DNA of 64,000 bases from Phycisphaerales bacterium (GTDB lineage Bacteria; Planctomycetota; Phycisphaerae; Phycisphaerales; UBA1924), in assembly GCA_965227775.1 (NCBI GenBank), contig OZ245777.1:2035992-2099991 (forward strand). Direction: 5' to 3'. Under the pieces are notes generated by a model. The model saw nothing but the letters and a program-made list of their open reading frames with translations, did no database searches and was not told where the DNA came from. Position 1 is the first letter of the stretch, and each line of letters opens with the position of its first letter. Below, one piece after another: positions 18,380 to 53,500 of this stretch. A program made the position numbers and the translations under genes.

Positions 18380-18547
18380 TCACTCACACCCGGCGTCGAA
18401 CGCGTTCTGGAAGGCCAGGAAATCGAAGATGGTGAGCTCGCCGTCGCCGTCGAAGTCGGCTGCGGGGTCGCCGTCCTGGAACAGGTTCTGGAAGGCGAGG
18501 AAGTCGAAGATGGTGAGCTGACCGTCGCCATCGATGTCTGGAGCGCA
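18380..18547 (-). repeat. Dockerin-like C-terminal module, copy A (double)
   Basis: CAPDIDGDGQLTIFDFLAFQNLFQDGDPAADFDGDGELTIFDFLAFQNAFDAGCE followed by the stop. Confidence 0.9.
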
Positions 18548-19672
18548 CGCGATGGGGATGAGCAGGAACGCATGCCCGAGCGAGCCGTCGCGCACGCCGG
18601 TGCCGACGATCCATCCGTTCTCGTTGATGTGATCGGCCCGTTGCAGTCGTTCCCAGCCGAGCAAGGCCGCGTCTGGCACGAGGTCGAAGAGCGAGTAGAA
18701 CTCGCCGCCGGCGCCATCGGGCAAGACGAACGCCTGGATGCCGACGAACGGGGGCGTTGCCAGATCGGACCACCAGCCGACGATGGTGCCGTCTTCGGTG
18801 ATCGAGCGTGCGACGCCCTGGGGCCGAACGAACAGGCCATCGAGCACATGGATCGGCTCGTAGCCCGAGCCGGTGTCTTGCCAGAGCGTCGCGTACTCGG
18901 GCTGGCTGATGTTGAATTGCGCCTCGCCGACGATCAGCCCGGCGCTGTTGGCGTCGTGCGCCCGGCTCGTCACGCCGGTGAGCGACGGATGGTCGTGCAG
19001 ATTGGTTAGCACGCCGGCATCCCAAGCGAATGCCTTGTCCTGCCCCGTACTGCGGTAGCCAACAACCAGGTCGTTGTCCGTCATCGCGAGCGGGCGGTCG
19101 AGTTCGCCGAGGTCTGTAAGCGCGACTCCATCCTCGAGCAGCCAGCCGCGAAAGTCGAGCCCGCCAGAACCGCTGGGCTCACGGCCCCATCCAAACAGAG
19201 TGCCCGTGTTGTTCGAACCGCGCACGCTTGCGAGTTGGTACGGTGGCGGGGCGGCGAGCAAGTCGGAGATGGCCTGTGGGTTGCCGTCGTCGTTCCATCG
19301 CACGGCAATCGGGTCTTGGATGATTCGTATGGGCCCGGGACCGCCCTCGAAGGTGATGCGATCGGACGTTCCGAGCGGACGGCGCTGGGCATCCATGGCC
19401 CAGGCCTCGCTGGCGTTGTCGTCGCCGCGAAGCAGCGGCAGTACCTCGACGATCGAGCCCTCGCTGGTCCAACGCAGTGCGACGGGCTTGCCCTCGACCG
19501 GTTCGAAGCCGATGCCCACGACCACGCCCTCTTCGCTCACGAAGGTGGCATCCACGACGAACAGGCCGAGCGGGTCTCGGGTGACGTCGGTGAGATCGAT
19601 GATGCGATAGCTGGGTTGGGCTGTCGCGGCGGTCGCCGTGAGAAGTGCTGCAATCAAGGCTGGGTTGGTCAT
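18380..19672 (-). CDS. Secreted HAF-type repeat protein with C-terminal GC-terminated double dockerin-like module
   Basis: Signal peptide MTNPALIAALLTATAATAQP with AGGAGAA RBS. HAF-like repeats (QDKAFAWDAGVLTNL, SRAHDANSAGLIVGEA, LGHAFLLIP). The tail is the shared module (see repeat feature 18380..18547). Confidence 0.85.
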   Translation of the reverse strand: MTNPALIAALLTATAATAQPSYRIIDLTDVTRDPLGLFVVDATFVSEEGVVVGIGFEPVEGKPVALRWTSEGSIVEVLPLLRGDDNASEAWAMDAQRRPLGTSDRITFEGGPGPIRIIQDPIAVRWNDDGNPQAISDLLAAPPPYQLASVRGSNNTGTLFGWGREPSGSGGLDFRGWLLEDGVALTDLGELDRPLAMTDNDLVVGYRSTGQDKAFAWDAGVLTNLHDHPSLTGVTSRAHDANSAGLIVGEAQFNISQPEYATLWQDTGSGYEPIHVLDGLFVRPQGVARSITEDGTIVGWWSDLATPPFVGIQAFVLPDGAGGEFYSLFDLVPDAALLGWERLQRADHINENGWIVGTGVRDGSLGHAFLLIPIACAPDIDGDGQLTIFDFLAFQNLFQDGDPAADFDGDGELTIFDFLAFQNAFDAGCE

Positions 19673-19690
19673 GGCGGTTCTCCTACCGAT

Positions 19691-19858
19691 CTATTCGCAG
19701 CCGGCGTCGAAGGCGTTCTGGAAAGCAAGAAAGTCGAAGAGGGTGAGTTGGCCATCTCCGTCGAAGTCGGCTCGCGGATCACCGATCCAGAATGCATCGT
19801 GAAACCGAATGTAGTCGAACACGTTGAGCTCTCCATCCCCGTCGAAGTCCGCTCGGCA
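19691..19858 (-). repeat. Dockerin-like C-terminal module, copy B (double)
   Basis: CRADFDGDGELNVFDYIRFHDAFWIGDPRADFDGDGQLTLFDFLAFQNAFDAGCE followed by the stop. Confidence 0.9.
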
Positions 19859-22033
19859 GGGTGGTGCACATCGATTCAGGAGCACCTGAAGCGAGGGAAC
19901 GCGTGTGTCGGCTACTGCGATGTCGGTTTGTCCGTCAAGATTTACATCTGCGAGCGTGAAGTTGGCGATCGTCTCGCCCGTTCGAAGGACCGGGCTCACG
20001 AAGAATCGCCGACCTCCAAGGTGCGTGAGTACTTGCACTCCTCCTGAGACATTGGCGACGACATCTGGGATGCCGTCCGCCGTCACGTCGCCAATCTCGA
20101 TTCCTGTCGCCGCACGGCCGATGTCGACCTGCTGCCGATCGCCCACACTGCCCAGGCCATCACCCGGCCAGTAGATGATCGCGCCGTTGAGTCCATCTCC
20201 AACGACGACGTCCTCGTTGCCATCCGAATCGAAGTCGACGATGCCGATGATCCCGCTGTTGAAGCCGATGGGGAGCACGCGCTGGGGAACCAACCGGCGG
20301 TTGTCCAGCTCGAAGATTGCCACCAGCCGACTCGGGAGGGTCGTGCTTACGCCAATCTCCAGCCGACCATCACCGTTGAGGTCACCAGCGGCCATCGCCG
20401 ACGAACGATCGGCAACATCGAGAACGAGCCGGTCGTCGAAGCGACCGGTCCCGTCGTTGTACGCCACCAGCAGCCGATCTCGCTCCAGCAGCACGATCGC
20501 ATCGGGGTCACCATCGGCGTCGGCGTCGAGCAGCTCAAACGTGGCTTCGCGAGAGTCAATGTCCCACTCGGCGATCGAGCGGAGACCGCCTGGTCCTTCG
20601 TTGATGATCGTCTCCAAGCCCCCGCCCTGCTTTGTGAGTGCCACCGCGTCGAGGTCGCCGTCCAAGTCAACGTCCGCAAGCCGCAGCTGCCTCACCGCGC
20701 CGCGGAGCGAGACGGACTGGACATGCACCGGCCCGGTCGCGGTCTGCCGGAGCACGTCGAGGCGTGGTCTCGCGTTCACGGACACGAGCAGGTCTGCAAG
20801 GCCGTCTCCATCCAGGTCGCCCGCGTCGATGTCGAAGAGGCCCCACGGTTCCACGACTGCGGTTGCTAGTTGTTGAGGCAGAGGGAACGAACCCAGTCCA
20901 TCGTTCACCAGCACGGTGACGTCGAAGCCCCGCGAGTTCGGAACCGCGAGGTCGATCGCGCCGTCAGAGTTCATATCGGCCGAAACGATCTGGATGGGCT
21001 CCCGGCCCACCGGCAGGACTGTCGGCGTGCCCAAGCGGCCACCGCCCATGCTATCCAGCACGGCAACGAATCCGCCGTTTTGGTCGACAACCGCCACGTC
21101 CGCGTCGCCGTCACGGTCGAAGTCGCCGACCGCAACAGCGCCAAGCTCGCCACCCGCGGGCGCGCATTGGGCCTCGCCAAACACGCCGCCGGTGTTCAGG
21201 CGCGTGCACACCAGGCCGACGATCAACTCGGTCCAGACGAGGTCGGGGTCGCCATCGCCGTCGACGTCTCCCAGAGCGACGCCGGTGGGAAACAGGCCGG
21301 TCGGATACAGGTCCGGCTCGCCGAAGTCTCCGGTCCCGTCATTGAAGTGGACCTGGAGTCGCGGCTCGGCGAATCCGCGGCTGGAAACAACGAGGTCCGG
21401 ATCGCCGTCGCCGTCCAAATCGCTCCATGCGATCGCCTCGGCGAACGACGCGACCAGCACCGAAGAAGTGAGCTGGAAAGATCCGGAGCCGTCGTTACGC
21501 AAGAGCCGCACGCCGCTGCTTGCTCGAACGGCCAGATCGATGTCGCCGTCGCCGTCCATGTCTTCCGGACTCAGTTCGTTCGGCAGTACGCCCGAACTCG
21601 ACGTGATCGGCTCGGCGAAGCTCCCTGCTCCGTCACCCAAGAGCACATCGACTGTCGACCCGAGCGTGCTGCCATAGGCAATGTCGAGCGCTCCATCGCC
21701 GTTGAAATCGGCGGCAACCACGCACTGCAGGCGTCGCAGATCCGGCAACTCGATGGTTCGAGATTCGAACCACCCGCCCTCTCGAGCTATCGAGAGCGTG
21801 ATGTCGTTGCTGACAACGTTGGCAACCGCGAGGTCCGCTCGCCCATCCCCATTGAAATCACCCACAGCAACGCAGCTGGGGCGTTCTTCGGCAGGAAGAT
21901 CCCACGGTGCGGCAAACGGCTGCTTGCAACGGGCATCGTGCGGGCCGGTTTGGGCAACAGCGTCGGCAGCTGGTCCCAGCGGTGCGAGACCGATAGCGAT
22001 GGCCCAAACGGCGGATCGATCCCGTCGTGACAT
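19691..22033 (-). CDS. Secreted FG-GAP/VCBS repeat protein (about 14 repeats) with C-terminal GC-terminated double dockerin-like module
   Basis: Signal peptide with GGGAGG RBS. Fourteen Ca-loop repeats of the type DFNGDGRADLAV, DLDGDGDPDLVV and DFDSDGNEDVVVGD. Shared C-terminal module. Confidence 0.9.
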   Translation of the reverse strand: MSRRDRSAVWAIAIGLAPLGPAADAVAQTGPHDARCKQPFAAPWDLPAEERPSCVAVGDFNGDGRADLAVANVVSNDITLSIAREGGWFESRTIELPDLRRLQCVVAADFNGDGALDIAYGSTLGSTVDVLLGDGAGSFAEPITSSSGVLPNELSPEDMDGDGDIDLAVRASSGVRLLRNDGSGSFQLTSSVLVASFAEAIAWSDLDGDGDPDLVVSSRGFAEPRLQVHFNDGTGDFGEPDLYPTGLFPTGVALGDVDGDGDPDLVWTELIVGLVCTRLNTGGVFGEAQCAPAGGELGAVAVGDFDRDGDADVAVVDQNGGFVAVLDSMGGGRLGTPTVLPVGREPIQIVSADMNSDGAIDLAVPNSRGFDVTVLVNDGLGSFPLPQQLATAVVEPWGLFDIDAGDLDGDGLADLLVSVNARPRLDVLRQTATGPVHVQSVSLRGAVRQLRLADVDLDGDLDAVALTKQGGGLETIINEGPGGLRSIAEWDIDSREATFELLDADADGDPDAIVLLERDRLLVAYNDGTGRFDDRLVLDVADRSSAMAAGDLNGDGRLEIGVSTTLPSRLVAIFELDNRRLVPQRVLPIGFNSGIIGIVDFDSDGNEDVVVGDGLNGAIIYWPGDGLGSVGDRQQVDIGRAATGIEIGDVTADGIPDVVANVSGGVQVLTHLGGRRFFVSPVLRTGETIANFTLADVNLDGQTDIAVADTRVPSLQVLLNRCAPPCRADFDGDGELNVFDYIRFHDAFWIGDPRADFDGDGQLTLFDFLAFQNAFDAGCE

Positions 22034-22084
22034 AGCGCCTCCCTGCTGGCAGGACGATAGCTCGCCGAGCCAGGCGCCAGCCCG

Positions 22085-22171
22085 TTATGGGCAGCCGGCG
22101 TCGAAGGCGCTCTGGAACGCCAGGAAGTCGAAGATGGTCAGCGAGCCGTCGCCGTCGAAGTCGGCCTGGCA
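22085..22171 (-). repeat. Dockerin-like C-terminal module, copy C (single)
   Basis: CQADFDGDGSLTIFDFLAFQSAFDAGCP followed by the stop. Confidence 0.9.
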
Positions 22172-23503
22172 GGCGTGGGTGAACTCCAGAATTGCGTCTC
22201 CGCCTGCCACGCCGTCGCGATCGCCATCGATTTGCTCGCCAGTTACCGTGCTGCGGATCGCATCCGACAGCGTCGCGGTATAGGTATCGCCGTCGAGCGG
22301 CTCGCCCAGTCCGATGAGCATGAATTGGCTGCCCGAACCCGACGCGTCAAAGGCGACCGGTTCGCCGGCAATGTTGGTGATGGTCACGTTTGCGTCCGTG
22401 AACTCGACCGGTTCGTTGAAGATCACGCGCAGGCTAGCCACGGGGTCACCGGTCAGGATCGAGCCCCCGGGCACCGACGGGCTCGTCTCCACAACGACGG
22501 GGCCCGGCTCGCTCCCAGACTCGCGGATGAGCCAGATGCCGTTCTGGTCGGAAACGTACATCGACGCGCCGTCGGGGCTGATCGATAGTGCCTCGATCTC
22601 GATGAACCCGGTCGCCCACGCTCGATACGTTCCATCGGGGTCGAAGGCCTGAACCTGCCCGGTCACCGAGTCGACGACGTATGCCTGGTCACCGAACACG
22701 CCCGCGCCGGTCATGTCCACGTCGTTCAGATTGCGAATGCTGCACGGCTGGAGGTCGCCGATGAGCCGGTAGGTACCGCCGACCGTCACGCCGTTGAGCT
22801 CGTACATGCCGCTCAGATTGTCGTTGTTGCAGTCACGGTCTGCAAGGAGCAGGCCGCCGCCGTACGAGCCCGAGAGGTCGCGCGCCAGCCCTGCGACGTC
22901 GGTATCGGTGCGACCCGCCGGCAGGGACGAGTCCGAGCGAACGATTCTTGCATAGCTCGCGTCCATCGTGGCGAGCGTCGTCATGCCATCCGAGGCGTCG
23001 CCGTCGAGTAGCACCATGCCGAACGGATCGGTCGACCCACCGTCGAGGTACTCGAAGTCGTAATTCAGCCCGGGGCCGGTCGTCCAGCGCGTCTGCACCT
23101 GCGCATCGGGGTCCACAGAGAGCATCCTGGATACGCCGCGAGGGCCTGCGACGATGTCGAGGATGCACACGTGGATGTTGCCGTCGATGAGGCCGTCCGC
23201 GTCGAGGCGGATCCGACGCACCGAGTCGAACGGCGATTGGTCGCTGACGGCGATCGTGCGAATCACGCCGGTCGGTTCGATGAGCCGCACGGTCAGAAAC
23301 CCCGAGGGCGACACGATCGCCGAGAGCACACCCTCACCAAAGCGCGGATCATCGATGGCCTCGAGCTTCGCTCGCACGCCGTCCAGCAGCGGTGCGACCC
23401 GCCGGACGGTGAACCCATCGGGCACCTCCGGCTGCGCCAATGCGGCGACGGGGGCAAGAGCGGTCGACAGAGTGGCTGCGACGAACATCTGGCGTGCGAG
23501 CAT
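22085..23503 (-). CDS. Secreted beta-propeller-like plus Ig-like domain protein with C-terminal single dockerin-like module
   Basis: Signal peptide MLARQMFVAATLSTALAPVAALAQP with GAGGAGA RBS. Ig-like segment (SLRVIFNEPVEFTDANVTITNIAGEPVAF). The tail is one copy of the module. Confidence 0.8.
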   Translation of the reverse strand: MLARQMFVAATLSTALAPVAALAQPEVPDGFTVRRVAPLLDGVRAKLEAIDDPRFGEGVLSAIVSPSGFLTVRLIEPTGVIRTIAVSDQSPFDSVRRIRLDADGLIDGNIHVCILDIVAGPRGVSRMLSVDPDAQVQTRWTTGPGLNYDFEYLDGGSTDPFGMVLLDGDASDGMTTLATMDASYARIVRSDSSLPAGRTDTDVAGLARDLSGSYGGGLLLADRDCNNDNLSGMYELNGVTVGGTYRLIGDLQPCSIRNLNDVDMTGAGVFGDQAYVVDSVTGQVQAFDPDGTYRAWATGFIEIEALSISPDGASMYVSDQNGIWLIRESGSEPGPVVVETSPSVPGGSILTGDPVASLRVIFNEPVEFTDANVTITNIAGEPVAFDASGSGSQFMLIGLGEPLDGDTYTATLSDAIRSTVTGEQIDGDRDGVAGGDAILEFTHACQADFDGDGSLTIFDFLAFQSAFDAGCP

Positions 23504-23605
23504 CTCGGGTCTCCTCTCGGCACAGGATACAGGAAGCCGGTCGACAACGCAAGGTGAATGCGGGCGCGGGAGGCCGGCGGGGTGAGAGTGCGGGTGGGTT
23601 GCGTG

Positions 23606-23773
23606 CTACGGGCAGCCGGCGTCGAAGGCGTTCTGGAACGCAAGGAAGTCGAAGATCGTGAACGAGCCATCGCCGTCGAAGTCGGCGCGGGGGTCCATCA
23701 AGTCGAACAGGTTCTGGAACGCGAGGAAGTCGAAGATGGTGAGCTCGCCGTCGCCGTCGAGATCGGCTCGGCA
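23606..23773 (-). repeat. Dockerin-like C-terminal module, copy D (double)
   Basis: CRADLDGDGELTIFDFLAFQNLFDLMDPRADFDGDGSFTIFDFLAFQNAFDAGCP followed by the stop. Confidence 0.9.
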
Positions 23774-25537
23774 CGTTTCGCCCCGGCCATAGACGATGTA
23801 TGCGGCCCCGGTGAAGTCGAACGGCGTGACCGCAACTCCGGGTGCGCCGACAAGGACATCGCTGCGCCCGTCGCCGTTGACGTCGCCACCGCCCGCAACG
23901 CCCATGCGCAGGCGGTGCCCCGTACCGGGTGCGTCGAGATATGCCCCCTCACCAGCGATCGCCAGATCGTCGGGTTCCAGAACCGCATCGAATGTCCCGA
24001 TCGCCGGCACGTCTCGGCCCATCAGCAGGAACGCATCGCTGACGCCGGGCATGGCGACGAGCACGTCGTCGATACCATCGCCCGTCACATCTCCCGCAGC
24101 GCCGAGCGATTGCCCGGCCATCGCGTTGGACGTCGGCCCAACCAGCACGAAGCCGTCGGTTCCGTCGAGATCGTCCAGCGCGACCGAAGCCGAGAAGGGC
24201 GAGCCTGCCGGGCGACCGAACACCATGTACGTCCGCCCGTGGTCGTTGCCCGGGAAGGAATAGGACCCGTAGCGCGTGTGCGAAGCGCCGGGCGCACCGA
24301 GCGCGATGTCGTCGATGCCGTCGCCGTTGATGTCGCCTGCGCAGGCGAGCGCACCGCCCAGGCGGGCATCGATGTTGTCGATGTTCAGGGCGAAGCCCGC
24401 CGTGCCGTCGAGCTCTGCCAGGAGGACCTCAGCGGGGAAGGGATCGCTCGAGTCGCGACCGAACAGCACGTACGCCCGGCCGCCGTACACCGTGTAGCAA
24501 TAGCCATAGCCGCCGTAGCAGTACTGCTGGGAGTTGGCTCGCGGGGCGCCGATCAGCACGTCGTCGATGCCGTCGCCGTTGATGTCGCCGGCCCCGGCAA
24601 CCGTGCGACCCGCCTCGTTGAACCAGTCCTCGCCCGACGCCTTGAACCCCTGGCCGGGCGCGAGCGCATCGAGTGCGACGTCGGCGGGGAAGCCGCCCGC
24701 GCGACCAAAGAGGATGTAGACGGCCCCCCGGCCACCAATGGGCGGATCGCCCAGGTCGTTGGGAGCGCCGAGGGCGAGATCGTCCACGCCATCGCCGTTC
24801 ACGTCGCCCACGCCTGCGAGGCTGTTTCCGACGAGTGCACAGCTGGTGCCCGTGCCGATCGGCGTGCACACGTCGGCGATGCGGAAGCCGTCGGCGCCGT
24901 CGAGATCCTCAACGACCACGCGCGCGGGGAAGGGCGTGCTGCCGCCCGCGACGTTGCGGCCGAAGATGACCGCGGCGCGACCCTCGCCGAAGGACGAGTA
25001 CTGGGCGGCGCCGCTGTCGCCGACGACCAGGTCGTCCACACCGTCGCCGTTCAGGTCGCCCGCTGCCGCGACGGCGTAGCCCATCGGCCGGTCGCGGTTC
25101 GATGAGCCGATGCGAAATCCGTCGCCGCCGTCGAGGGCGGCCAGGTCGAGGCCGGCCGGCACGCCGCCCGCTCGGCCGAACACCACGTACGCCTCGCCGC
25201 CCACGCGCATCCTGCGATAGCCCTCGCTGGCCATCGCCCCGATGACGACGTCGTCCAGCCCATCGCCGTTGATGTCGCCCACGATCGCGGCCGAGAATCC
25301 GAGCTTCTCGAACGATCGCAACCCGCGTGCGAACGCGCCCAGCGTGCCATCGCCCCCGCTGGCGGGCTGGAGCGATTCGAGATCGAGCCTCTCGGGGAAC
25401 GCGTCGGCCAGGGGGTCACCCTGGGCAAGGGCGCTCCCGGCGACGGCCAGCAGCGCGAGGGTGGCGGTGACGGGAGTGATGGCGGTGATAGGGGTGGTGG
25501 GGGTGGTGGGGGTGGAGCGAACGGGCGCGTGGGGCAT
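23606..25537 (-). CDS. Secreted 7x FG-GAP (integrin-alpha-like propeller) protein with C-terminal double dockerin-like module
   Basis: ORF 23606..25684 trimmed to the ATG at 25537 (AAGGAG 7 nt upstream). Thr/Pro-rich leader and signal peptide. Seven repeats (DINGDGLDDVVIGA, DLNGDGVDDLVVGD, DVNGDGVDDLALGAP and others). Shared C-terminal module. Confidence 0.88.
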   Translation of the reverse strand: MPHAPVRSTPTTPTTPITAITPVTATLALLAVAGSALAQGDPLADAFPERLDLESLQPASGGDGTLGAFARGLRSFEKLGFSAAIVGDINGDGLDDVVIGAMASEGYRRMRVGGEAYVVFGRAGGVPAGLDLAALDGGDGFRIGSSNRDRPMGYAVAAAGDLNGDGVDDLVVGDSGAAQYSSFGEGRAAVIFGRNVAGGSTPFPARVVVEDLDGADGFRIADVCTPIGTGTSCALVGNSLAGVGDVNGDGVDDLALGAPNDLGDPPIGGRGAVYILFGRAGGFPADVALDALAPGQGFKASGEDWFNEAGRTVAGAGDINGDGIDDVLIGAPRANSQQYCYGGYGYCYTVYGGRAYVLFGRDSSDPFPAEVLLAELDGTAGFALNIDNIDARLGGALACAGDINGDGIDDIALGAPGASHTRYGSYSFPGNDHGRTYMVFGRPAGSPFSASVALDDLDGTDGFVLVGPTSNAMAGQSLGAAGDVTGDGIDDVLVAMPGVSDAFLLMGRDVPAIGTFDAVLEPDDLAIAGEGAYLDAPGTGHRLRMGVAGGGDVNGDGRSDVLVGAPGVAVTPFDFTGAAYIVYGRGETCRADLDGDGELTIFDFLAFQNLFDLMDPRADFDGDGSFTIFDFLAFQNAFDAGCP

Positions 25538-25557
25538 GGCGGGCTCCTTCGGAGCCC

Positions 25558-25586
25558 AGCATACCACAAATCCTCTGTTGATCCAA
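25558..25586 (-). promoter_or_regulatory. Candidate sigma70-like promoter for gene 23606..25537
   Basis: The minus strand reads TTGGAT-17 nt-TATGCT, preceded by TGg (extended -10). Just downstream, GGGCTCC-GAA-GGAGCCC can form a hairpin that includes the AAGGAG RBS. Promoter rules for this lineage are not established. Confidence 0.3.
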
Positions 25587-25601
25587 GGCGATTCGGGGCC
25601 G

Positions 25602-25682
25602 CTACGGGCAGCCGGCGTCGAAGGCGTTCTGGAAAGCAAGAAAGTCGAAGATGGTGAATTTGCCGTCGCCGAGCGTACGAGC
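25602..25682 (-). pseudogene. Orphan remnant of a dockerin-like module (3' gene fragment only)
   Basis: Minus-strand translation gives ARTLGDGKFTIFDFLAFQNAFDAGCP followed by the stop. An in-frame TGA lies only 43 codons upstream (25734-25736), and the open frame runs through the terminator hairpin. No passenger domain, signal peptide or RBS. Confidence 0.7.
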
Positions 25683-25690
25683 ACACACCA

Positions 25691-25725
25691 AGAGAAAACG
25701 GCGCGCCCGGAGTCGGTCGCGCCGT
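25691..25725 (-). terminator. Rho-independent terminator downstream of the PEP-CTERM gene
   Basis: Minus strand: ACGGCGCG-12 nt loop-CGCGCCGT followed by TTTTCTCTT. Begins 32 nt after the stop at 25757. Confidence 0.65.
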
Positions 25726-25756
25726 TGCCTTTCTCACCACTACCAGATGCTGGCCG

Positions 25757-26416
25757 CTACGAGCGGCGGCGCGTGCCGACGCCGACCAGCGTGATACCAG
25801 CCAGGGCGAGCATGCCGCTGCCCGGCAGCGGGATGACCACCGAGTCGGTCGGGTCGAAGTGGACCGTGTCGATCAGCACGCTGCCGCCGGGGCCGTTGAT
25901 CTCCACGCGGGCGATGCCCGAGACCGAGAAGGCGAAGAGCTGCCACGCCGTGCCAGCGCCGGAGCTGAGCGTGTCTCCGAGGTTGATCGTCTCCAGCAGC
26001 CCGCCGCCCGAGCCGAAGGCCGACATCGTCACGCCGTCGTCGGTTGTCAGCGCGAGCACGCTGAACGCGTCCCAGTTCGCGCCGACCGCCGACATCTCGA
26101 TGCCCGTAAACGTGTCGGCCGTACCGATGCGGTAGGCGTTCACGAGGCTGATGGCCCCATCGGCGCCGCCGGTTCCTGGCAGGATCACGTCGTGGTTCCA
26201 GCCCGAGGTGGTGCCGCCGAAGTCGATGCCGCTGGCAACGAACTGATTGTCGAGGCGCGTGGTGTCGGTGCCGTCCCAGGTCGTACCGCCGTAGATGCCG
26301 CTCTGGTCGAGCGACTCGAAGGTCAGCGTGACCGGGCCGGCCAGCGCGCCGGAGGCCACGACGACGGTCGCGAGCGTGGCAGAGGTGTTCTTGATGATCT
26401 TGGGTGTCTTGGTCAT
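25757..26416 (-). CDS. PEP-CTERM-type sorting-domain protein (secreted, unknown passenger)
   Basis: Signal peptide MTKTPKIIKNTSATLATVVVASGALAG with GGGAGA RBS. The C-terminus VVIPLPGSGMLALAGITLVGVGTRRRS has a Pro-containing motif, a TM helix and a basic tail, as in PEP-CTERM/exosortase substrates. Confidence 0.8.
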   Translation of the reverse strand: MTKTPKIIKNTSATLATVVVASGALAGPVTLTFESLDQSGIYGGTTWDGTDTTRLDNQFVASGIDFGGTTSGWNHDVILPGTGGADGAISLVNAYRIGTADTFTGIEMSAVGANWDAFSVLALTTDDGVTMSAFGSGGGLLETINLGDTLSSGAGTAWQLFAFSVSGIARVEINGPGGSVLIDTVHFDPTDSVVIPLPGSGMLALAGITLVGVGTRRRS

Positions 26417-26443
26417 GGTGTCATCTCCCGTGCCTGCGCACGC

Positions 26444-26611
26444 TTAGGGGCAGCCCGCCGAGAAATCGGTGCTGTATGCGAGGAAGTCGAAGAGGTTCCA
26501 GATCCCGTTGCCGTCCCAGTCGGCGATGGGGTCGCGATCGTTGAACAGGTTGAAGAACATCTGGAAATCGAAGATCGTCACATCCCCGTCCTCATCCAGG
26601 TCGACGTCGCA
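26444..26611 (-). repeat. Dockerin-like C-terminal module, copy F (double, diverged)
   Basis: CDVDLDEDGDVTIFDFQMFFNLFNDRDPIADWDGNGIWNLFDFLAYSTDFSAGCP followed by the stop. Confidence 0.85.
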
Positions 26612-28303
26612 GGGTGCCGAGCCACCGCGGCCGAACACCACGTAGCTCGAACCGGCACTCAAGCGACCACGGGGGTCTGCGAGGGTAGCTCCGATGACGA
26701 CATCGTCGATGCCGTCGCCGTTCACGTCGCCCGTGCCGGCTACGGAAAAGCCGCTGCGATCTCCTATCGTCACCCCGTCGAGGCGGAAGCCGTTGGTCCC
26801 GTCCAGGTCGTGCGACGGCAGCGCCGCGGGGAAGCCGCCCGACGACGGGGCGCGGCCAAATACCACGTAGCTCGAGCCCGTATCCCTTTGGCCGCCTGGG
26901 TCTGCTAGATACGCCCCGATGATGAGGTCATTGACGCCGTCGCCGTTGACATCGCCGGCAGAGGCGACCGCATGGCCGCTATTGCTGCTCGAAGCATTGG
27001 GGCCGTCGAAGCGGAAGCCGTTGGCGCCGTCCAGGTCGACCAGTTGCAGTGCCGCAGGGAAGCCGCCCGACGAGCCTTCGCGACCGAACACCACGTAGCT
27101 CGAGCCCGCATTTGACTGGCCGCGGGGGTCTGCATTGGGGGCCCCGATGATGACGTCGTCCACGCCGTCGCCGTTCACGTCGCCGGCCGAGGCGACAGAT
27201 CTGCCGCTCATGTCGGACGCGGCATCGCCGTCGAGGCGGAAGCCGTTGGTGCCGTCCAGGACGGCCAGGTCGAGCACCGCCGGCAAGCCGCCCGACGAGC
27301 CGTCGCGACCGAACACCACGTAGCTCGAACCGGCACTCGAGCGACCGCCGGGGCCTGCGACGGGGGCCCCGATGATGAGGTCGTCCACGCCGTCGCCGTT
27401 CACGTCGCCGGCCGAGGCGACAGATTCGCCGCTGTAGGTGGACGGCTCGGCGCCATCGAGGCGGAAGCCGTTGGTGCCGTCCAGGCCGGCGAGGTCGAGC
27501 ACCGCGGGGAAGCCGCTCGACGAGCCGTCGCGGCCGAACACCACGTAGCTCGCACCGGCACCCGTGCGACCGCCGGGGTCTGCGCGGGGCGCCCCGATGA
27601 TGACGTCGTCCACGCCGTCGCCGTTCACGTCGCCGGCCGAGGCGACAGAGTCGCCGGTGCGGTCATCACTCGCCGCCCCGTCGAGGCGGAATCCGTTGGT
27701 GCCGTCCAGCGCGGCGAGGTCGAGTGCCGCCGGGAAGCCGCCGGACGACATGTCGCGGCCGAACACCACGAAGCTCGAACCGGCACGAGGCCGCCCACTG
27801 GGGCTCCCGCGGTACGCGCCGATGATGACGTCGTCCACGCCGTCGCCATTGACATCGCCCGCACCGGCCACGGACAAGCCGCTACGTTCGCTGAATGTTG
27901 ACCCGTCGAGGCGGAAGCCGTTCGAGCCGTCCAGGCCGGCGAGGTCGAGTGCCGCCGGGAAGCCGCCGGACGACACGTCGCGGCCGAACACGACATAGCT
28001 CACGCCCGAGTCGCGTCGACCGGGGGCGTCCGCGAAGGGAGCCCCAATGACGACGTCGTCGATGCCGTCGCCGTTCACGTCGCCCACGACGGCCACGGAG
28101 GTACCGAACGAGTCAGCTACTGCCTGCCCGTCGAGTCGGAAGCCGGTGGTCCCGTCCAGGCTCGACAGCTCGAACACGGCGGGGAAGGGGTCGGTCAACT
28201 GGGCCAGGGCGACGCTCGGGCACGCCAGGCCAGCGAGCATCGCCAGGCCGACGGCACGCCGCGGGAGCGGCGCGGCCCAAAGGATCGGTGCGGGGTCAAT
28301 CAT
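26444..28303 (-). CDS. Secreted 7x FG-GAP propeller protein with a diverged C-terminal double dockerin-like module
   Basis: Signal peptide with GGAGAGAG RBS. Seven 75-aa repeats (FPAALDLAGLDGSNGFRLDG...AGDVNGDGVDDVIIGAP...SYVVFGRD). The tail is a diverged copy of the module. Confidence 0.9.
   Translation of the reverse strand: MIDPAPILWAAPLPRRAVGLAMLAGLACPSVALAQLTDPFPAVFELSSLDGTTGFRLDGQAVADSFGTSVAVVGDVNGDGIDDVVIGAPFADAPGRRDSGVSYVVFGRDVSSGGFPAALDLAGLDGSNGFRLDGSTFSERSGLSVAGAGDVNGDGVDDVIIGAYRGSPSGRPRAGSSFVVFGRDMSSGGFPAALDLAALDGTNGFRLDGAASDDRTGDSVASAGDVNGDGVDDVIIGAPRADPGGRTGAGASYVVFGRDGSSSGFPAVLDLAGLDGTNGFRLDGAEPSTYSGESVASAGDVNGDGVDDLIIGAPVAGPGGRSSAGSSYVVFGRDGSSGGLPAVLDLAVLDGTNGFRLDGDAASDMSGRSVASAGDVNGDGVDDVIIGAPNADPRGQSNAGSSYVVFGREGSSGGFPAALQLVDLDGANGFRFDGPNASSSNSGHAVASAGDVNGDGVNDLIIGAYLADPGGQRDTGSSYVVFGRAPSSGGFPAALPSHDLDGTNGFRLDGVTIGDRSGFSVAGTGDVNGDGIDDVVIGATLADPRGRLSAGSSYVVFGRGGSAPCDVDLDEDGDVTIFDFQMFFNLFNDRDPIADWDGNGIWNLFDFLAYSTDFSAGCP
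26612..28198 (-). repeat. Seven in-frame tandem repeats of 225 bp (75 aa, FG-GAP blades)
   Basis: The 59-nt core gccccgatgatgacgtcgtccacgccgtcgccgttcacgtcgccggccgaggcgacaga starts at 27141 and 27591 (identical) and at 27366 (1 mismatch). The spacing is exactly 225 bp. Confidence 0.9.
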
Positions 28304-29005
28304 GATCTCTCTCCACGAGGGCGGGCCGGCATGGGCCGCAGCGGGAGGCTACCGCGACACCCCTGGGATATCCATGACCCCTTGTCCAGAATCGCCGCGA
28401 GCGCGTGAAGCTGGGCGAACTGCTGGGGTGCGCTTGCTGAGGTGGGCTTGCTGCGGTGCGACTCTTGGGGCACGGGCGCGCTAGCAGGGCGATCGCGCAC
28501 CGCCATCGCGATCATCGGACCGACCCCGATGCCCCCGCGGGCAACGAACATGCTCCCGCGAGCGACGCCGGCGTGCTTCGTGTGCGATCCCGTGCGCGCA
28601 AGGCCCCTGCTCGTGCGCAGGGCGGGTGTTCTCGTATACACAGCAAGGCCCGCGGTGTACGCCGCGGCGGGCTTCGCGTGCACCGGAACCGTTCTCGTGT
28701 GCACGAGGAAGATTCTCGTTCTCCGTTACGCGGACCTTGCGGCCGTTCTCGGACGCATTGTGCGCACGTCCTGCGCACGTCGGTGAGCATTCCTTCGAAA
28801 TGTCATGCGTTGCGCCGGCGCGGCCGAGCCGCGCGCGAACAACGGCCGGGGACACTCTCCCGATTCTTGCAAATCGGACCAAAGTCGCGTTCCCGGACGC
28901 TCGATGACATGGTCGGTCGGGCGGCGCACGGTGCGCCGCCCGCGACACGGATGGGCCGGCGCGCACGACGCGCACCGGCGGACGAACCGACACAAGGATG
29001 GAATC

Positions 29006-29680
29006 ATGTCGATCACACCGCAGAAGCTGTTGCAACGCCTCGAGTTCTACGAGCAGCGCGCCCCCGGCTGGGTCACCAACGCGTCAACGATCGGCCTGAC
29101 GACCGAGCAGGCCACGCAGCTGCAGAACCTGGTCACCGGCACACGCACCGCGTACGACGACGCGCAGGCGGCACGCAACGCCGCCAAGAGCGCGACCGTC
29201 ACCCAGGACGCCGCCTTCGACGCCATGGACACGTTCGGCGCCCAGATGATCAAGATCATCCGCGCCTTCGGCCTGGCGACCGATGACCCGAGCGTGTTCG
29301 CGACGGCGCAGATCCCCGAGCCCAAGCAGCCCGAGCCGCGGGCGCCCGTCAACCCCAGCAACGTGACGTTCGACCTGGTCGAGAACGGGGCCCTCGAAGT
29401 TCGCTGGGACGGCCTGACCATCCCCGGCACGACCTACCTCGTCGATCGCCAGACGTGGAGCGGCACCGGCCAGCCGACGGGCTTCGCCCGCATCGCCACC
29501 GTGAGCGAGCGGCGCTTCGTCGACACCAACATCCCGACCGGCACCGCGACGGCGACGTACCGCGTGAGCGCGCTCAAGGGCGGCCAGCAGACCGCCGGCG
29601 CGCAGAGCACGGCCCACTTCGTGTTCGTGGGCAACGGGCAGGGCCAGCTCGTGACCGCGCCCGAGAGCGACGCGGCGTGA
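29006..29680 (+). CDS. Hypothetical protein with C-terminal fibronectin-III-like domain
   Basis: ATG at 29006 with AAGGA 7 nt upstream (inside listed ORF 28805..29680). Helical N-terminal half. The C-terminal segment VTFDLVENGALEVRWDGLTIPGTTYLVDRQ...ATYRVSALKG looks like FN3. No signal peptide seen. Confidence 0.6.
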   Translation: MSITPQKLLQRLEFYEQRAPGWVTNASTIGLTTEQATQLQNLVTGTRTAYDDAQAARNAAKSATVTQDAAFDAMDTFGAQMIKIIRAFGLATDDPSVFATAQIPEPKQPEPRAPVNPSNVTFDLVENGALEVRWDGLTIPGTTYLVDRQTWSGTGQPTGFARIATVSERRFVDTNIPTGTATATYRVSALKGGQQTAGAQSTAHFVFVGNGQGQLVTAPESDAA

Positions 29681-33333: not shown

Positions 33334-34143
33334 ATGCGTCGCACCCTGACCGCTGCCTGCCTGACTTCCCTTGTGGCTTCCACTGCCGTCGCCCAATCGA
33401 CCGCCACCTATCGCGTGACGTTCGATGCGACATGGTCGGAAGCAACGCACCCAGTCGATTTCCCGCGAGATCCGCACTTCTCGCCGCTCGTGGGCGCGAC
33501 CCATAGCGAGCCGGGCCTCATCTGGGAGGCCGGCCAGCTGGCAAGCCCGGGCATGGAGGTCATGGCTGAGACCGGTAGCACCTCGCTCCTGCTCTTCGAG
33601 ATTTCCCAGATGGCGACGGATGGCATGATCGGGACCGACATCGTCGGCGGGCCCATCCGCCTGAGCCCGGGCAGCGCCTCCGTGACCTTTGAGACCTCCA
33701 GTGAGTACTCGCTGCTCACCCTCGTGACGATGATCGCGCCGAGCCCAGATTGGTACGTCGGCACGCAGGGTCTGGACCTTCGTGACGACGGCCGCTGGCG
33801 CGAGAGCATCGTGTTCGAGCTGTGGCCCTATGACTCGGGCACCGACTCGGGCGTGACCTACACCTCGCCGAACCAGGACACGAACCCGGCAGAGCCGATC
33901 CGTCGCATCGCCGACGAGTTCCCCTTTACGGGCACACCCTCCCTGGGCACGTACACGATCGAACTCTTGAGCGTCGAGTGCGTCGCCGAGCTCGATGGTG
34001 ACGGCGTCCTGACCATCTTCGACTTCCTCGAGTTCTCCAACCTGTTCGATGCAGGCGATCTGCGTGCCGACCTCGACGGAGACGGCTCTCTGACCATCTT
34101 CGACTTCCTCGCGTATCAGGACGCGTTCGCCGACGGCTGCTGA
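33334..34143 (+). CDS. Secreted spondin_N-like domain protein with C-terminal double dockerin-like module
   Basis: Signal peptide with GAGAGGAGA RBS. TYRVTFDATWSEATHPVDFPRDPHFSPLVGATH ... IAPSPDWYVG is recognisable as a spondin N-terminal-type domain. The tail is the shared module, ending in DGC then the stop. Confidence 0.8.
   Translation: MRRTLTAACLTSLVASTAVAQSTATYRVTFDATWSEATHPVDFPRDPHFSPLVGATHSEPGLIWEAGQLASPGMEVMAETGSTSLLLFEISQMATDGMIGTDIVGGPIRLSPGSASVTFETSSEYSLLTLVTMIAPSPDWYVGTQGLDLRDDGRWRESIVFELWPYDSGTDSGVTYTSPNQDTNPAEPIRRIADEFPFTGTPSLGTYTIELLSVECVAELDGDGVLTIFDFLEFSNLFDAGDLRADLDGDGSLTIFDFLAYQDAFADGC
33979..34143 (+). repeat. Dockerin-like C-terminal module, copy G (double)
   Basis: CVAELDGDGVLTIFDFLEFSNLFDAGDLRADLDGDGSLTIFDFLAYQDAFADGC followed by the stop. 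Confidence 0.9.
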
Positions 34144-39819: not shown

Positions 39820-39987
39820 CTACGGACACCCAGCGTCGAACTCGTTCTGGAACGCAAGGAAGTCGAAGAGCGTGAGGCTGCCGTCGCCGTCGAAGTCGGC
39901 GCGCGGGTCGCCGGTGTCGAACAGGTTCTGGAATGCCAGGAAGTCGAAGATGGTCAGGGCGCCATCACCGTCCAGGTCGGCCCGGCA
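39820..39987 (-). repeat. Dockerin-like C-terminal module, copy H (double)
   Basis: CRADLDGDGALTIFDFLAFQNLFDTGDPRADFDGDGSLTLFDFLAFQNEFDAGCP followed by the stop. Confidence 0.9.
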
Positions 39988-40728
39988 CGGCGAGATGATG
40001 GCCACGTCGAACACCCGCACGTCGTCGATCGTGCCGAGGAACTCATCGTTGGGCCCGGCTGTTGGGCTGCCGGTAAACCTGCCGCGACCTCCGATCGAGA
40101 GCTCGAAGTCATTCTGCGCCGTCGAGCCGAACCCGGCGGGAATGGGCTCGATGGCCTCGACGATGCCATCGACTGCGAGGAGGAGGAAGTCGCCCGAGCG
40201 TGCGGCCACGATCTCGTGGGGCTGCCCGTCGTTGACGGGTGTCACGCTGGCCAGGCCGACGCTCAGGGCGCCGTCGGCGGAGATGGCGAATATCACGGCG
40301 CCGTCGTCGCGCCGGACGGTCATGGCCCAGCCGTCTTCGCTTCCGAGTTTCTCCTTGTTGATGACAAATCGACCGCCGGGGGCGCCCGGCTCGCTGTTGT
40401 CGGTCACCACGACCGCCGCGACGGAGAAGTCGCCATCGGCCAAGTCGAACGCGTCCTCGTCGCCCAGGGGGCGGACCTGTTCGTCCGAGACACCGTCGAA
40501 GTTGACCGCGAAGCCGCCCATGAAGGGCGTGAAGGCGATGCCCGCGCCCAGGACGCCGTCATACGCCGTACCCAGCGTGCCGCTATTGGCCGTCGGGTTC
40601 GAGGCGTCGTCGAAGTCGTAGTGCAGGATGGGCTCGGGCGTCTGGGCGCTCGCGGCCGAGGCGAGTGCGAAGGCGGAGCATGCAAGTGCGGCGACGGCAT
40701 TCAGTTGGGCGGAGCGGGTGATGGACAT
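39820..40728 (-). CDS. Secreted LamG/concanavalin-A-like lectin-fold protein with C-terminal double dockerin-like module
   Basis: Signal peptide MSITRSAQLNAVAALACSAFALASAASAQ. LHYDFDD...NSGTLG...NFDGVSD...FSVAAVV...GTIDDVRVF is typical of the Laminin_G_3-type fold. Shared C-terminal module. Confidence 0.8.
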   Translation of the reverse strand: MSITRSAQLNAVAALACSAFALASAASAQTPEPILHYDFDDASNPTANSGTLGTAYDGVLGAGIAFTPFMGGFAVNFDGVSDEQVRPLGDEDAFDLADGDFSVAAVVVTDNSEPGAPGGRFVINKEKLGSEDGWAMTVRRDDGAVIFAISADGALSVGLASVTPVNDGQPHEIVAARSGDFLLLAVDGIVEAIEPIPAGFGSTAQNDFELSIGGRGRFTGSPTAGPNDEFLGTIDDVRVFDVAIISPCRADLDGDGALTIFDFLAFQNLFDTGDPRADFDGDGSLTLFDFLAFQNEFDAGCP

Positions 40729-40831: not shown

Positions 40832-40920
40832 CTACGGGCAGCCGGCGGCCAACTCGTTCTCGAACGCGAGAACGTCGAAGATGGTCAGCCTTCCGTCGCG
40901 CCATCGAAGCCGGCCCGAAG
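40832..40920 (-). pseudogene. Decayed, frameshifted remnant of a dockerin-like module
   Basis: The tail of listed 60-aa ORF 40832..41014 reads RWRDGRLTIFDVLAFENELAAGCP followed by the stop. What is left of the Ca-loop (FDGATEG) is in another frame. 21 nt (gcgtgctacgggcagccggcg) are identical to the 3' end plus flank of gene 23606..25537. Confidence 0.55.
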
Positions 40921-41084
40921 TCCTTACTTGGCAGTCGGATACGGATCGAGCAAACAGGCCGAGATCGTTGGTCCGGGGCCCGCAAGAGCTGAACGTGTCT
41001 TTGGACTCCAGCAACTGAACCCGCTTCGTCCACGCGCGAAGGCAGCCTGAGATTCCGATTGACGAGTCTCTCGGCTACGAGCGG

Positions 41085-50564: not shown

Positions 50565-53500
50565 ATGAGTGGCCAACGTACCGGTTCGCCCCGCCACGCC
50601 AAGTCCCCATTCGGCCTTGGCCGCCTCCGCTCGCTGTATCGCTCGGCCGGCAAGGCCCTGGGAGAGCCGCGTGCGACCGAACCCGAGGGGACGGGGCAGA
50701 TCCTCGAGCAGCTCGAGTCGCGAATCTTGCTCGGCGGCGATCACCCGAGCTTTGAGTTGCCGCTGACGCCCACCTCGGGCACCGAGATCGTGCTCGACGG
50801 CGTGACCGGCGAGGGCACCGTCGACGGCGAGATCGAAGACATCACGATGAGCCTGGCGGACGACCTGTTCCGCTTCGATGCTCCGCAGACCGACTTCGTC
50901 ACCGTGTGGGCCGACACCATCAACGTGGTTGGCGGCTCCGCGCTCGATTCGCGCGTCGAGATCTACGACATCGACGGAGCGCTCGTGGCCCAGGGGTCCT
51001 CGCAGGGCGAGCTCTCCGATGGCCTCTTCTCCGACGGCTGGGCGGGCTTCCTGGCCGAGGGCGGCGAGACCTACTTCATCCGCGTGCTGAGCGACGTGGA
51101 CAACGCGGGTCAGATGACGACCGGCGAGTACACGGTGCGCGTCGATGCGATCACGAATACCGACCTGGTCATCGAAACCGACCCCATGCCGACGCCCCCG
51201 GCCCGCTTCGGTGCCGGCTTTGCCAGCGGGTCGATCACGCTGGTCGGCGACGACGTCGTCTACCGCGTCGAGGCGGGCAGCGACGACGCGTTCAACTCGC
51301 TGGCGACCTTCTACGCCGCCCTGCCTGCAATGCTCCCGTCGGACCTTGACACCCGCGTCGACGTGTACGACGAGCAGGGCCGGTTCCTGACCGGCGACAG
51401 CGACACGGGCCGACTGCTCACCGGCTTCGACATTGTGGAGTCGGCGGCCGACGCCGTGTTCTTTGTCCGCGTCCGCAGCGACCGCTTCGACGCGGGCGAT
51501 ACGCGTTCGACCGGCGCGTACCAGATCAACGCAGAGATGGCCGCCGCCGAAATCGACATCGATCCGGTCATCCGTCGCGGCCAGACGACCGACGCCATCG
51601 CCAGCGCCTTCGACACCAGGATCTACCGGTTCACCACACAGGGCTCGGGTCTGAGCTTCGTTGGCGCAATCGGCACGGGCCTTGTGCCATTGCCCGAGCC
51701 GGCCGTCCGGCTGTACGACAGCAACGCGGATCTCGATGGGTTCAGCGACCTTGCCGGCATCGCCGACCTGCAGATCCAGCTCGAGGGCAACACCGAGTAC
51801 TTCGTGGTCGTCGAGACCTTCGATAACCCGCCCGGTGGCCAGTATGACCTGCTCATCGAGAGCAACCACACGTTCTTGCCGAACCAGGAGATCGATGATC
51901 ACGTCGATCGTCTTGAGGGCAACGACCCTGACGGCGAGCCGATCGAGTTCAGCCCGACCGAGGGGTACACCAACCCCGACCAGTTCGACTTCGTCCGCCG
52001 CCAGTTTGAGTTGGCGACACCGCTGCGCTTCAGCGATCCGTTCTTGTACACCCGTACGTTCGTCGACCCGAACGGCATGTTCCCCGACGTGGTCAACCCA
52101 GTCGCGGACCGCTCGTACGTGCAGCAGGCGCTGGGAACGGGCCGCATCCACAGCTTCGGCGATACCGATCTGTTCCAGTTCACCGTGCCGCTCGACATGC
52201 TGGGTGACTACGCCGGCGACAACGACGACGTGGGCGACGCCCTCTTCGCCGGTGGCCAGGGTGACTTCATCATCAAGGGCACCGACAACGACACCGGCGG
52301 CCCGATCACCCGGAGCTTCCTGGGCGTCTGGGATGCGCAGGATTGGTGGCCGGTGCGCGCTGGCGTTGACATGGAAATCTACGCGATGGAGTCGTGGACG
52401 TACGACCCAGACGCTGACGTTGGTGGCACTGCCCTCATCCTGGGCGGCGAGTTCCAGTTCGCCGACTTCCAAGCGGCGCCGTTTGTCGCGGCGTACGCGT
52501 ATGACCCGACGCCGGGCGTCGAGGAGTTCGTGCTCACGCCGCTCGCCGGCGGCCTAGACGGAGCCGTGTACGACTTCGGCGTATTCGATCTGGACCCCGA
52601 CGACGACATCGAGAGCCAGCTCATCGTGGCAGGCGAGTTCACGGGCGGCATCCGCTCGTACACCGTCCAGCCCGGCGACTTCATCTCCGCCGGTGTGTTC
52701 GCTCCGCTGCCGATCGCGACCTTTGCGTCCGAGTACTACGCGATCGAGGTGTTCGATCCGGCTGATCCGGAAATGGGCGATGAGAACCCCGAGAGTCTCT
52801 GGTTCGGCGGAACCGGCTGGCTTGAGGAACTGATCGTCGACGACATGGGGCCGCGAGCCGGTGCGTTCTTCGAGATCGAGCAAGGCGCGGGTGATGGTGT
52901 CGTCCTCGACCTGAAGTCGTTCGAGATCCCGCCACCCCCCGTGGGCATGGGCGAAGCAACGGAAGGCCTTGTGGTCGGCGGCACCTTCGACGGCGTCGAG
53001 GGCTTCGCCGTCAGCAACGTGTTCTTCATCGAGGGCGATGCGGGCGCAATGGCGCCGGGTGCATTCATCCTCGACGACATGGGCGGCGGCGTGAACGACA
53101 CCGTCCGCGCGCTCGAGGCGTGGGATCGTGACGGCTCGGGCACCGATCTCTTCGATGAGATCATCGTCGGCGGCGACTTCACCGCCACGGCAGGCGGCCA
53201 GCCCCTGAACTTCATCGGTTCCTACGCGGGTGCATGGGCATCACTGGGCTCCGCGCTGCCCGCCGGCGGACCGGTCGACTTCAACGCACCGGTGCACAGC
53301 CTCAACGTCTTCATCGACGGCGAGTTTGGCGTCGGCACGGCGCCGTTCGCCGAGAACCCGGTTCTGTACGCCGGTGGTGAGTTCACTGTCGCCGATGGCA
53401 GCCCCATCGGCCGCATCGGGGGCCTGACCTTCGACACCACGCTCCTTGTGTGGACGTGGACGCCGCTCGGCTTCGGCTCGACCGATACCGTTTTCGCGCT

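Follow-up and report, generated by a model that had tools for sequence, protein, structure and literature searches.

Clostridial type I dockerins, e.g., those of C. thermocellum and C. cellulolyticum (2vn5), consist of a duplicated Ca2+-binding loop–helix unit, with Asp or Asn at loop positions 1, 3 and 5, Gly at position 6 and Asp at position 12; the helices are antiparallel, the pair has an internal two-fold symmetry, the termini are held together, and the module is usually located at the C-terminus of a secreted protein. In all intact dockerin structures, an intramolecular clasp has been reported, in which residues −3 to −1 preceding loop 1 make non-covalent contact with the C-terminus; when it is broken, the Ca2+-bound fold becomes less stable and cohesin is bound less strongly (Slutzki et al. 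2013, PMC3821032). Here we describe a 64-kb window, i.e., the whole stretch of 64,000 nucleotides from contig OZ245777.1 of a Phycisphaerales bacterium (66.5% GC content), which was examined by six-frame pattern and hidden Markov model (HMM) scans, and in which the open reading frame (ORF) 23606..25684 on the minus strand ends in a dockerin-like tail of 55 residues. The family to which this tail belongs has already been catalogued as the GC-type dockerin (NCBIfam NF041540, "dockerin_GC: GC-type dockerin domain-anchored protein", curated cut-off 29 bits). Our overall explanation, to which we give a probability of about 0.7, is that it represents a Ca2+-ordered, disulfide-ringed GC-type dockerin on secreted proteins of the Phycisphaerales.

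Two other described systems are relevant to this module. The group-2 dockerins of Ruminococcus flavefaciens have a single repeat, and two such units bind per cohesin, in opposite orientations and in contact with each other; among natural truncations, they were stated to be the only ones known to function (Duarte et al. 2025, PMC12270676). The "planctosome" hypothesis proposes that cohesin- and dockerin-containing proteins of Phycisphaerae (Nemodlikiaceae) come together at the outer surface (Andrei et al. 2019, PMC6461901). As for the GC-type family, we found no paper in the literature mentioning either "GC-type dockerin" or NF041540.

All six two-unit modules of the window score above the NF041540 cut-off (32.3–47.9 bits, E-values 1e-7 to 1e-12), and the existence of this named family is a point that the initial annotation of the window did not contain. 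What the window contributes is therefore a set of further members of a curated family and not a new kind of module. The members found here share with NF041540 the Gly-Cys end, the Phycisphaerales hosts and the varied N-terminal passengers, whereas the name of the family does not imply the N-terminal, three-unit or internal tandem arrangements described below. A profile search of 5.8 billion proteins gave 168 short matches, many of them annotated as GC-type dockerin domain-anchored protein from Phycisphaerales metagenome-assembled genomes (MAGs); when 1.84 billion cluster representatives were searched exhaustively with HMMER, 2,314 matched at E ≤ 1e-10; and a scan of one genome per species gave 79 loci, all in MAGs of Phycisphaerales/Phycisphaeraceae, with many loci per genome. 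The related DNA sampled amounts to 1.17 Mb with 195 module-containing ORFs, in which the units were counted with a unit HMM, and orthologous genes in the Phycisphaerales MAG loci show 76–79% nucleotide identity to the window, which places the latter in another member of this order. It is thus a large family, whose modules tag secreted proteins of many kinds in an order of bacteria that has received little study. The features that may be new are the ring-closure logic (Cys in place of the D-P junction), the variation of the unit number between one, two and three, the N-terminal and internal placement, and the unannotated single-unit form.

The module at 23606..23773 comprises the last 55 codons of its ORF and the stop, and is translated as CRADLDGDGELTIFDFLAFQNLFDLMDPRADFDGDGSFTIFDFLAFQNAFDAGCP. 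Its two Cys codons are located at 23771–23773 and 23612–23614, the second Cys being followed by Pro and the stop, and an ATG near 25537 is likely the true start of the ORF. The window holds seven intact modules (six two-unit and one single-unit) and two decayed half-modules, the latter absent from the list of copies in the initial annotation; all nine close an ORF, and signal-peptide-like N-termini precede all seven intact modules. The seven Cys contexts listed at the outset (CRAD three times, CQAD, CAPD, CDVD and CVAE) are exactly those of the seven intact modules, and the second Cys is, as had been stated, the last or penultimate residue in every one (GC, GCP or GCE, then stop). The first Cys does precede loop 1, but at a spacing of always exactly three residues (C-x-x-D/E) rather than the three to four that had been given. 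The loop ligands, i.e., Asp at positions 1, 3, 5 and 12 and Gly at position 6, are exact in 11 of 13 units, with conservative substitutions in the remaining two (Glu at position 1, Asn at position 5). The full loop–helix string, which had been attributed to every intact copy, is valid as a consensus but matches only 7 of the 13 units literally; furthest from it are the 26444 copy and the first halves of the 34143 and 19691 copies, the latter with a divergent first unit (DFDGDGELNVFDYIRFHDAF).

Conservation among homologs, named at the outset as a check on the Cys pair, was found: in 172–174 related modules both Cys and the loop Asp residues are conserved to at least 95–100%. Among the two-unit modules of the 79 loci, both Cys occupy the exact columns in 172 of 174, the first Cys being one residue earlier in the remaining two; consecutive units are spaced by 27 residues in 174 of 176; and independent cluster representatives carry both Cys in 133 of 134 cases. 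The Cys-to-Cys span is therefore 54 residues, i.e., 2 × 27. When the module ends are compared column by column with the inter-unit linker FDAG-D-P-xAD, the first Cys aligns with the Pro of the linker and the last Cys with its Asp. Because the equivalent Asp and Pro are adjacent in the chain, the two Cys should be adjacent in space in a two-fold pseudo-symmetric pair, an argument that draws on the known symmetry of dockerins (PMC12484212). Distant relatives from other metagenomes, which contain three to four internal tandem modules, keep exactly 54 residues from Cys to Cys in each of them; the offsets of the Cys to the loops are −4/+11 in these proteins versus −3/+12 in the others, and the sum is conserved. 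The position also corresponds to that of the dockerin clasp (PMC3821032), as the first Cys lies at −2 relative to the G0-equivalent Ala, and the second Cys two residues past helix 2. The known clasps, however, are non-covalent (Trp-Pro, Trp-Tyr, Glu-Arg and Tyr-Lys), whereas that of the GC-type module would be covalent.

In 168 of the 174 related modules, the module is C-terminal, with 0–4 residues after the last Cys. This strict placement, together with the many paralogs per genome with unrelated passengers, which is the usual signature of a sorting tag, would suit a C-terminal sorting or secretion signal (PEP-CTERM/exosortase, type IX secretion system C-terminal domain or GlyGly-CTERM-like), where a machine recognises the tail, perhaps processes the Gly-Cys, and attaches the protein to the envelope. 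An interchange of tags is also hinted at by the PEP-CTERM-like gene 25757..26416, after which a decayed GC half-module follows out of frame. However, six modules are located at the mature N-terminus of α/β-hydrolases, directly after the signal peptide, and keep both Cys, showing that the terminal Gly-Cys is not a C-terminal processing motif. Furthermore, the internal tandem modules of the distant relatives do not require a free C-terminus, the module has a confidently predicted Ca2+-binding fold without a transmembrane segment or basic tail, and no conserved processing enzyme was found among the neighbours of the 79 loci. We therefore consider a sorting signal improbable. Two observations on the tandem relatives may be added: two of them (P0123 and P0155) have a peptidoglycan-binding-like C-terminus, a neighbouring gene of the latter encoding a PG_binding_1 domain, and another relative (P0126) is a Cys-less tandem protein with a unit spacing that appears similar by eye.

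The numbers of Cys residues are also informative. When the signal-like N-terminus is disregarded, the module pair accounts for every Cys in four of the seven window proteins, and in the protein of gene 18380..19672 the pair is the only Cys of the whole chain, as in the tandem proteins P0121 and P0122, which have no Cys outside their modules. Among 147 related proteins, exactly two Cys are present in 42, and the Cys count is even in 99 (p = 3e-5, with a crude heuristic for the signal peptide). Across 344 units, a second pair, at loop position 2 ("DCD") and helix position 15 ("FLCF"), is complete in eight, and neither of its Cys is ever found without the other (p = 2e-16), suggesting that Cys residues in this domain come as bonded pairs; by its positions, this second pair would place a contact on the unit's variable face.

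Co-conservation is also expected if both Cys of the module bond to a partner instead of to each other, either through intermolecular disulfides to a receptor, i.e., covalent anchoring, or through metal coordination, and engineered cohesin–dockerin pairs that can be locked by intermolecular disulfides appear in the reference list of PMC12484212. However, a span fixed at 54 residues, with offsets that compensate each other, is predicted by ring closure but not by two independent attachment points; the two Cys map onto adjacent linker residues; and each module of the internal tandem arrays carries exactly its own pair, all of which leaves this option with very little likelihood. The disulfide staple proposed in the initial annotation thus gains strong but indirect support from the 54-residue span, the D-P equivalence, the retention in N-terminal and internal modules, the proteins free of other Cys and the published position of the clasp, and we consider it highly probable, from the sequence comparisons, that the Cys pair forms a disulfide, i.e., a covalent clasp.

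An AlphaFold2 model of the two-unit module, built from a 115-sequence alignment, has a predicted local distance difference test score (pLDDT) of 88, rising above 90 from the first Cys onward. Helices are present only at residues 22–33 and 49–61, which gives a loop–helix, loop–helix architecture without entering E helices. In a Foldseek search of the Protein Data Bank (PDB), the only close superpositions were with the dockerins 2y3n_B, 2ozn_B and 2vn5_D (root-mean-square deviation (rmsd) 2.3–2.8 Å over 51 columns), with the best fit for 2y3n_B (TM 0.56/0.59, rmsd 2.3 Å), while calmodulin-type chains superposed at an rmsd of 8–10 Å. According to this model, the module is a compact pair of 27-residue loop–helix "F-hand" units with canonical Ca2+ ligands, and the likeness to the duplicated F-hand of dockerins, suggested before any search, agrees with the NF041540 match, the predicted repeat of loop and helix, and the dockerins as the only low-rmsd fits in the PDB.

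By sequence, on the other hand, the best PDB matches are Entamoeba EF-hand proteins (E-value 9e-8), ahead of a Ruminococcus dockerin (3e-4), as would be expected of an ordinary EF-hand calcium sensor or buffer without a docking function. The 12-residue loop pattern is indeed common to the module and to canonical EF-hand pairs (calmodulin-like; Entamoeba CaBP1/2). However, the GC module is predicted to lack a helix before either loop, has Asp at position 12 as in dockerins, where the EF-hand has Glu, is flanked by Cys, occurs on exported, extracellular proteins with signal-like N-termini, and fits calmodulin-type pairs poorly. A chance acidic low-complexity tail, the other trivial option, is excluded by the HMM E-values and by the number of cluster representatives matched at E ≤ 1e-10. 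We regard an EF-hand sensor or a chance tail as scarcely credible.

While the fold resembles that of the clostridial dockerins, we note several differences. First, the repeat period of the GC-type module is 27 residues, with a linker of 6–7 residues and no middle helix. Second, the helix FDFLAFQNxF takes the place of the S/T and K/R recognition pairs; the helix had already been described as quite different from the clostridial one, and the helix and linker differences turn out to be those of the named GC-type family. Third, the clasp would be a disulfide rather than stacking or salt-bridge contacts. Fourth, the passengers are not carbohydrate-active enzymes.

These features can be combined into a proposed mechanism. 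After Sec export, two Ca2+ ions would order both loops, judging from the ligand pattern, and the Phe-rich helices would then pack in the antiparallel manner that AlphaFold2 predicts. The Cys before loop 1 would thereby meet the Cys after helix 2, and oxidation would close a ring of exactly 54 residues. The disulfide could then be regarded as a second "linker", where FDAG-C~C-RAD mimics FDAG-D-P-RAD and the module becomes pseudo-circular and two-fold symmetric, and as the covalent counterpart of the clasp by which ordinary dockerins are stabilised. If true, no known dockerin would be as small or as rigid as this disulfide-closed, Ca2+-dependent docking module of 54 residues, and it would be attractive for protein engineering.

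A helical wheel of the unit places the variable positions 2, 7, 15, 19 and 22 on one face and F13, F16 and F20 in a stripe suited to the core, while I10, F11, L14, Q17 and N18 make up a second near-invariant face, which by the same reasoning matches the positions through which type I dockerins contact cohesin. Compared between genomes, the nucleotide identity of the module is 87–88%, versus 66–79% for the passengers. The latter are diverse: FG-GAP propellers are the most common (19 of 98 proteins), and the others include Rax2-type propellers, beta-helices, LamG, spondin and lamin-tail domains, haem peroxidase, glucose/sorbosone dehydrogenase, CotH, M43 and S8 peptidases, esterases and α/β-hydrolases. 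Carbohydrate-active enzymes are not dominant among them, and the passenger domains are not cellulolytic. The many paralogs per genome are often tandem genes, e.g., five GC-dockerin genes in succession, plus the PEP-CTERM-like gene, in the minus-strand stretch 18380..28303 of the window, and a cluster of seven in L006, an uncultured Phycisphaeraceae bin that also contains an ortholog of gene 18380..19672 (77% nucleotide identity). We somewhat favour the view that the near-invariant, partly hydrophobic face on both helices docks these unrelated passengers onto one shared cell-surface receptor, possibly with a dual binding mode. The proteins of the planctosome are likewise secreted, carry dockerins outside a cellulosomal context and come from the same class of Planctomycetota, but the hypothesis rests on Pfam-type cohesin and dockerin matches in a different family of genomes, and GC-type modules are not part of its evidence (PMC6461901). 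Identifying the receptor would reveal the organisation of the cell surface in these planctomycetes.

Several observations weigh against the dockerin reading or its parts. In Pfam, the gathering threshold of Dockerin_1 (PF00404) is 22.9 bits, whereas the best window protein reaches 19.5 bits and the others give no match; among the relatives, a three-unit protein reaches 20.4 bits and 0 of 98 match at 1e-4. None of the Foldseek E-values reaches significance, which is to be expected of a domain with 55 residues. The number of Cys is odd in two of the window proteins. Concerning the receptor, the argument from the conserved face was built on helical-wheel reasoning rather than on coordinates; an all-versus-all clustering of 911 non-module ORFs from the 79 loci, searched for conserved neighbours, returned only ABC-transporter ATPases and syntenic genes; and Pfam Cohesin had no match among the scanned window and neighbour proteins. 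Lastly, three orthologs of the single-unit protein discussed below, which lack both Cys, share one type of tail and may reflect a single evolutionary event.

One module of the window, at 22085..22171, has a single unit, with a Cys-to-Cys span of 27 residues. Eleven full-length proteins in the sampled DNA contain one unit flanked by both Cys with the span of 27, and the related loci hold 10 single-unit proteins beyond that of the window. Single-unit modules remain under the NF041540 cut-off (17–19 bits, 19.2 for that of the window), and their carriers are named "hypothetical protein" by NCBI. The host gene 22085..23503 has 31 orthologs (43–71% identity) that keep one unit; 27 of these have both Cys, three have neither and one has a single Cys (Fisher p = 9e-4), and many lack any other Cys. 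A second orthogroup is single-unit in all four genomes, and members of a third have either one or two units, the difference being an in-register loss of exactly 27 residues. In an AlphaFold2 model of the full 22085..23503 protein, a beta-propeller and an Ig-like domain are followed by the loop and a helix at 457–468, the tail having a pLDDT of ~76. In several of the orthologs the Ca2+ loop is replaced by a non-liganding sequence, e.g., ADPAEPYGLLDLSD or DIADDFGxxGxDGMVSFGDF, while the flanking Cys are kept, and in these loop-degenerate proteins a disulfide may substitute for Ca2+.

The initial annotation had proposed that half a module may be functional on its own. This is supported by the conservation of single units across the 31 orthologs, although both the geometry and the R. 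flavefaciens precedent suggest that such a half acts as one of a pair of units. Because the start of a loop adjoins the end of the other helix in the two-unit fold, a lone unit would most plausibly pair with a second unit through two reciprocal disulfides, rebuilding the two-unit fold by analogy with known dockerins; the alternative is a 27-residue ring closed within one chain. The group-2 dockerins (PMC12270676) are likewise naturally single-loop, and functional there, providing a precedent by analogy for binding by the 22085..22171 module. Their sequences are unrelated, however, and the Phycisphaerales units are flanked by Cys, which could link two units covalently. With the single-unit form, there would be two natural classes of single-repeat dockerins, and dimers of this kind, if they exist, would be the natural covalent counterpart of the R. 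flavefaciens mode of two dockerins on one cohesin.

F-hand and EF-hand units are stable only in pairs, which raises the question of whether the modules simply bind each other without a separate receptor, forming homo- or hetero-oligomers or a surface network in which single-unit proteins are obligate partners. The conserved single units with both Cys, the existence of a three-unit module, the switch of orthologs between one and two units by exactly 27 residues, the contact between two single-repeat dockerins in the group-2 structure and the lack of a cohesin match nearby are all in line with such binding. However, 93% of the modules hold a complete intramolecular pair, predicted with a pLDDT above 90, and have no unsatisfied unit, and the outer face has conserved polar residues, Q17 and N18, that point to a specific heterologous partner; we consider module–module binding without a receptor unlikely. 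Combining the shared-receptor reading with the single-unit data, one may speculate, and we do so tentatively, that the Cys-flanked unit is a modular "snap", which closes the ring in two-unit modules, cross-links the single (perhaps also the three-unit) modules of two polypeptides, and serves a possibly non-cohesin receptor in a large non-cellulosomal surface-display system. One of the three-unit proteins, P0125, is a 120-residue protein that consists only of a signal peptide and three units, with extra Cys pairs.

Table 1. Modules of the window and related forms in the sampled DNA; the stops of the two-unit modules lie at 18380(−), 19691(−), 23606(−), 26444(−), 34143(+) and 39820(−)
Feature	Location	Strand	Remarks
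Two-unit GC-type dockerin module, C-terminus of FG-GAP repeat protein	23606..23773	−	NF041540 44.9 bits; AlphaFold2 pLDDT 88
Host gene of the 23606 module	23606..25540	−	Signal-peptide-like N-terminus (...LALLAVAGSALAQ), ~six FG-GAP repeats (Pfam FG-GAP 9e-41), then module
Two-unit module ending gene 18380..19672 (HAF-repeat-like passenger)	18380..18547	−	NF041540 46.8 bits
Two-unit module ending gene 19691..22033 (FG-GAP/VCBS propeller passenger)	19691..19858	−	NF041540 39.0 bits
Single-unit module ending gene 22085..23503 (beta-propeller + Ig-like passenger)	22085..22171	−	CQADFDGDGSLTIFDFLAFQSAFDAGCP, then stop; NF041540 19.2 bits
Decayed half-module, 43-codon ORF just 3' of gene 25757..26416	25602..25733	−	Ends ...LGDGKFTIFDFLAFQNAFDAGCP, then stop; no in-frame upstream gene
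Divergent two-unit module ending FG-GAP gene 26444..28303	26444..26611	−	NF041540 32.3 bits
Two-unit module on Spondin_N protein 33334..34143	33979..34143	+	Ends GC, then stop; NF041540 44.4 bits
Two-unit module ending LamG/ConA-like protein 39820..40728	39820..39987	−	NF041540 47.9 bits
Decayed half-module closing 60-codon ORF	40832..41014	−	RWRDGRLTIFDVLAFENELAAGCP, then stop; loop Asp residues lost; probably a gene remnant upstream of the LamG gene
Internal tandem-module proteins	P0121, P0122, P0123, P0155 (L080:6001-7701)		One contig read (L080, P0155), 44.5% GC content
N-terminal-module hydrolases (PETase/chlorophyllase-like)	L056:9911-12100, L056:12085-14340, L064:9758-12091, L064:12101-14299, L074:9773-12955, L016:3627-4274		~640 residues follow the module
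Carriers of the second Cys pair	P0061, P0067, P0073, P0081, P0082, P0089, P0096, P0101, P0114; L041:2840-4588 and others		
Single-unit orthologs with degenerate Ca2+ loop	P0275, P0277, P0281, P0283, P0285, P0286, P0288, P0291, P0294		
Three-unit module	L021:11577-12824 (= P0124) and P0125		81 residues Cys-to-Cys

The nucleotide identity among the window copies (Table 1) is 55–83% and does not exceed their amino-acid identity. Recent duplication or gene conversion was therefore rejected as the source of their likeness, and selection on the protein keeps the copies similar. For the window, the practical gain is that seven genes can be annotated as GC-type dockerin proteins, among them the single-unit gene, which, like its orthologs, is currently overlooked by the curated model.

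Three other genes of the window deserve mention. The minus-strand gene 25757..26416 encodes a 219-residue protein without a Pfam match, with a tail (VIPLPGSGMLALAGITLVGVGTRRRS, then stop) that resembles PEP-CTERM by eye, the HMM match of the tail being weak (E-value 0.16); a decayed GC half-module follows it out of frame at 25602..25733, and the two may represent the replacement of one C-terminal tag by another. The plus-strand gene 50565..58010 encodes a protein of 2,481 residues with many repeats that look like the pre-peptidase C-terminal type (…DTDLFRF…YYLLV…GxYxL…), an N-terminal LEQLESRILL motif, and a weak ASRT-like match near the C-terminus as its sole Pfam match. It was considered as a scaffoldin or partner and rejected, as it has no cohesin or other strong Pfam match and nothing links it to the modules. 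The plus-strand gene 28805..29680 encodes a 291-residue protein with a weak match to the PQLLE family, which is found beside FG-GAP GC-dockerin genes in 7 of 80 sources, a recurrence that most likely reflects synteny rather than a functional link.

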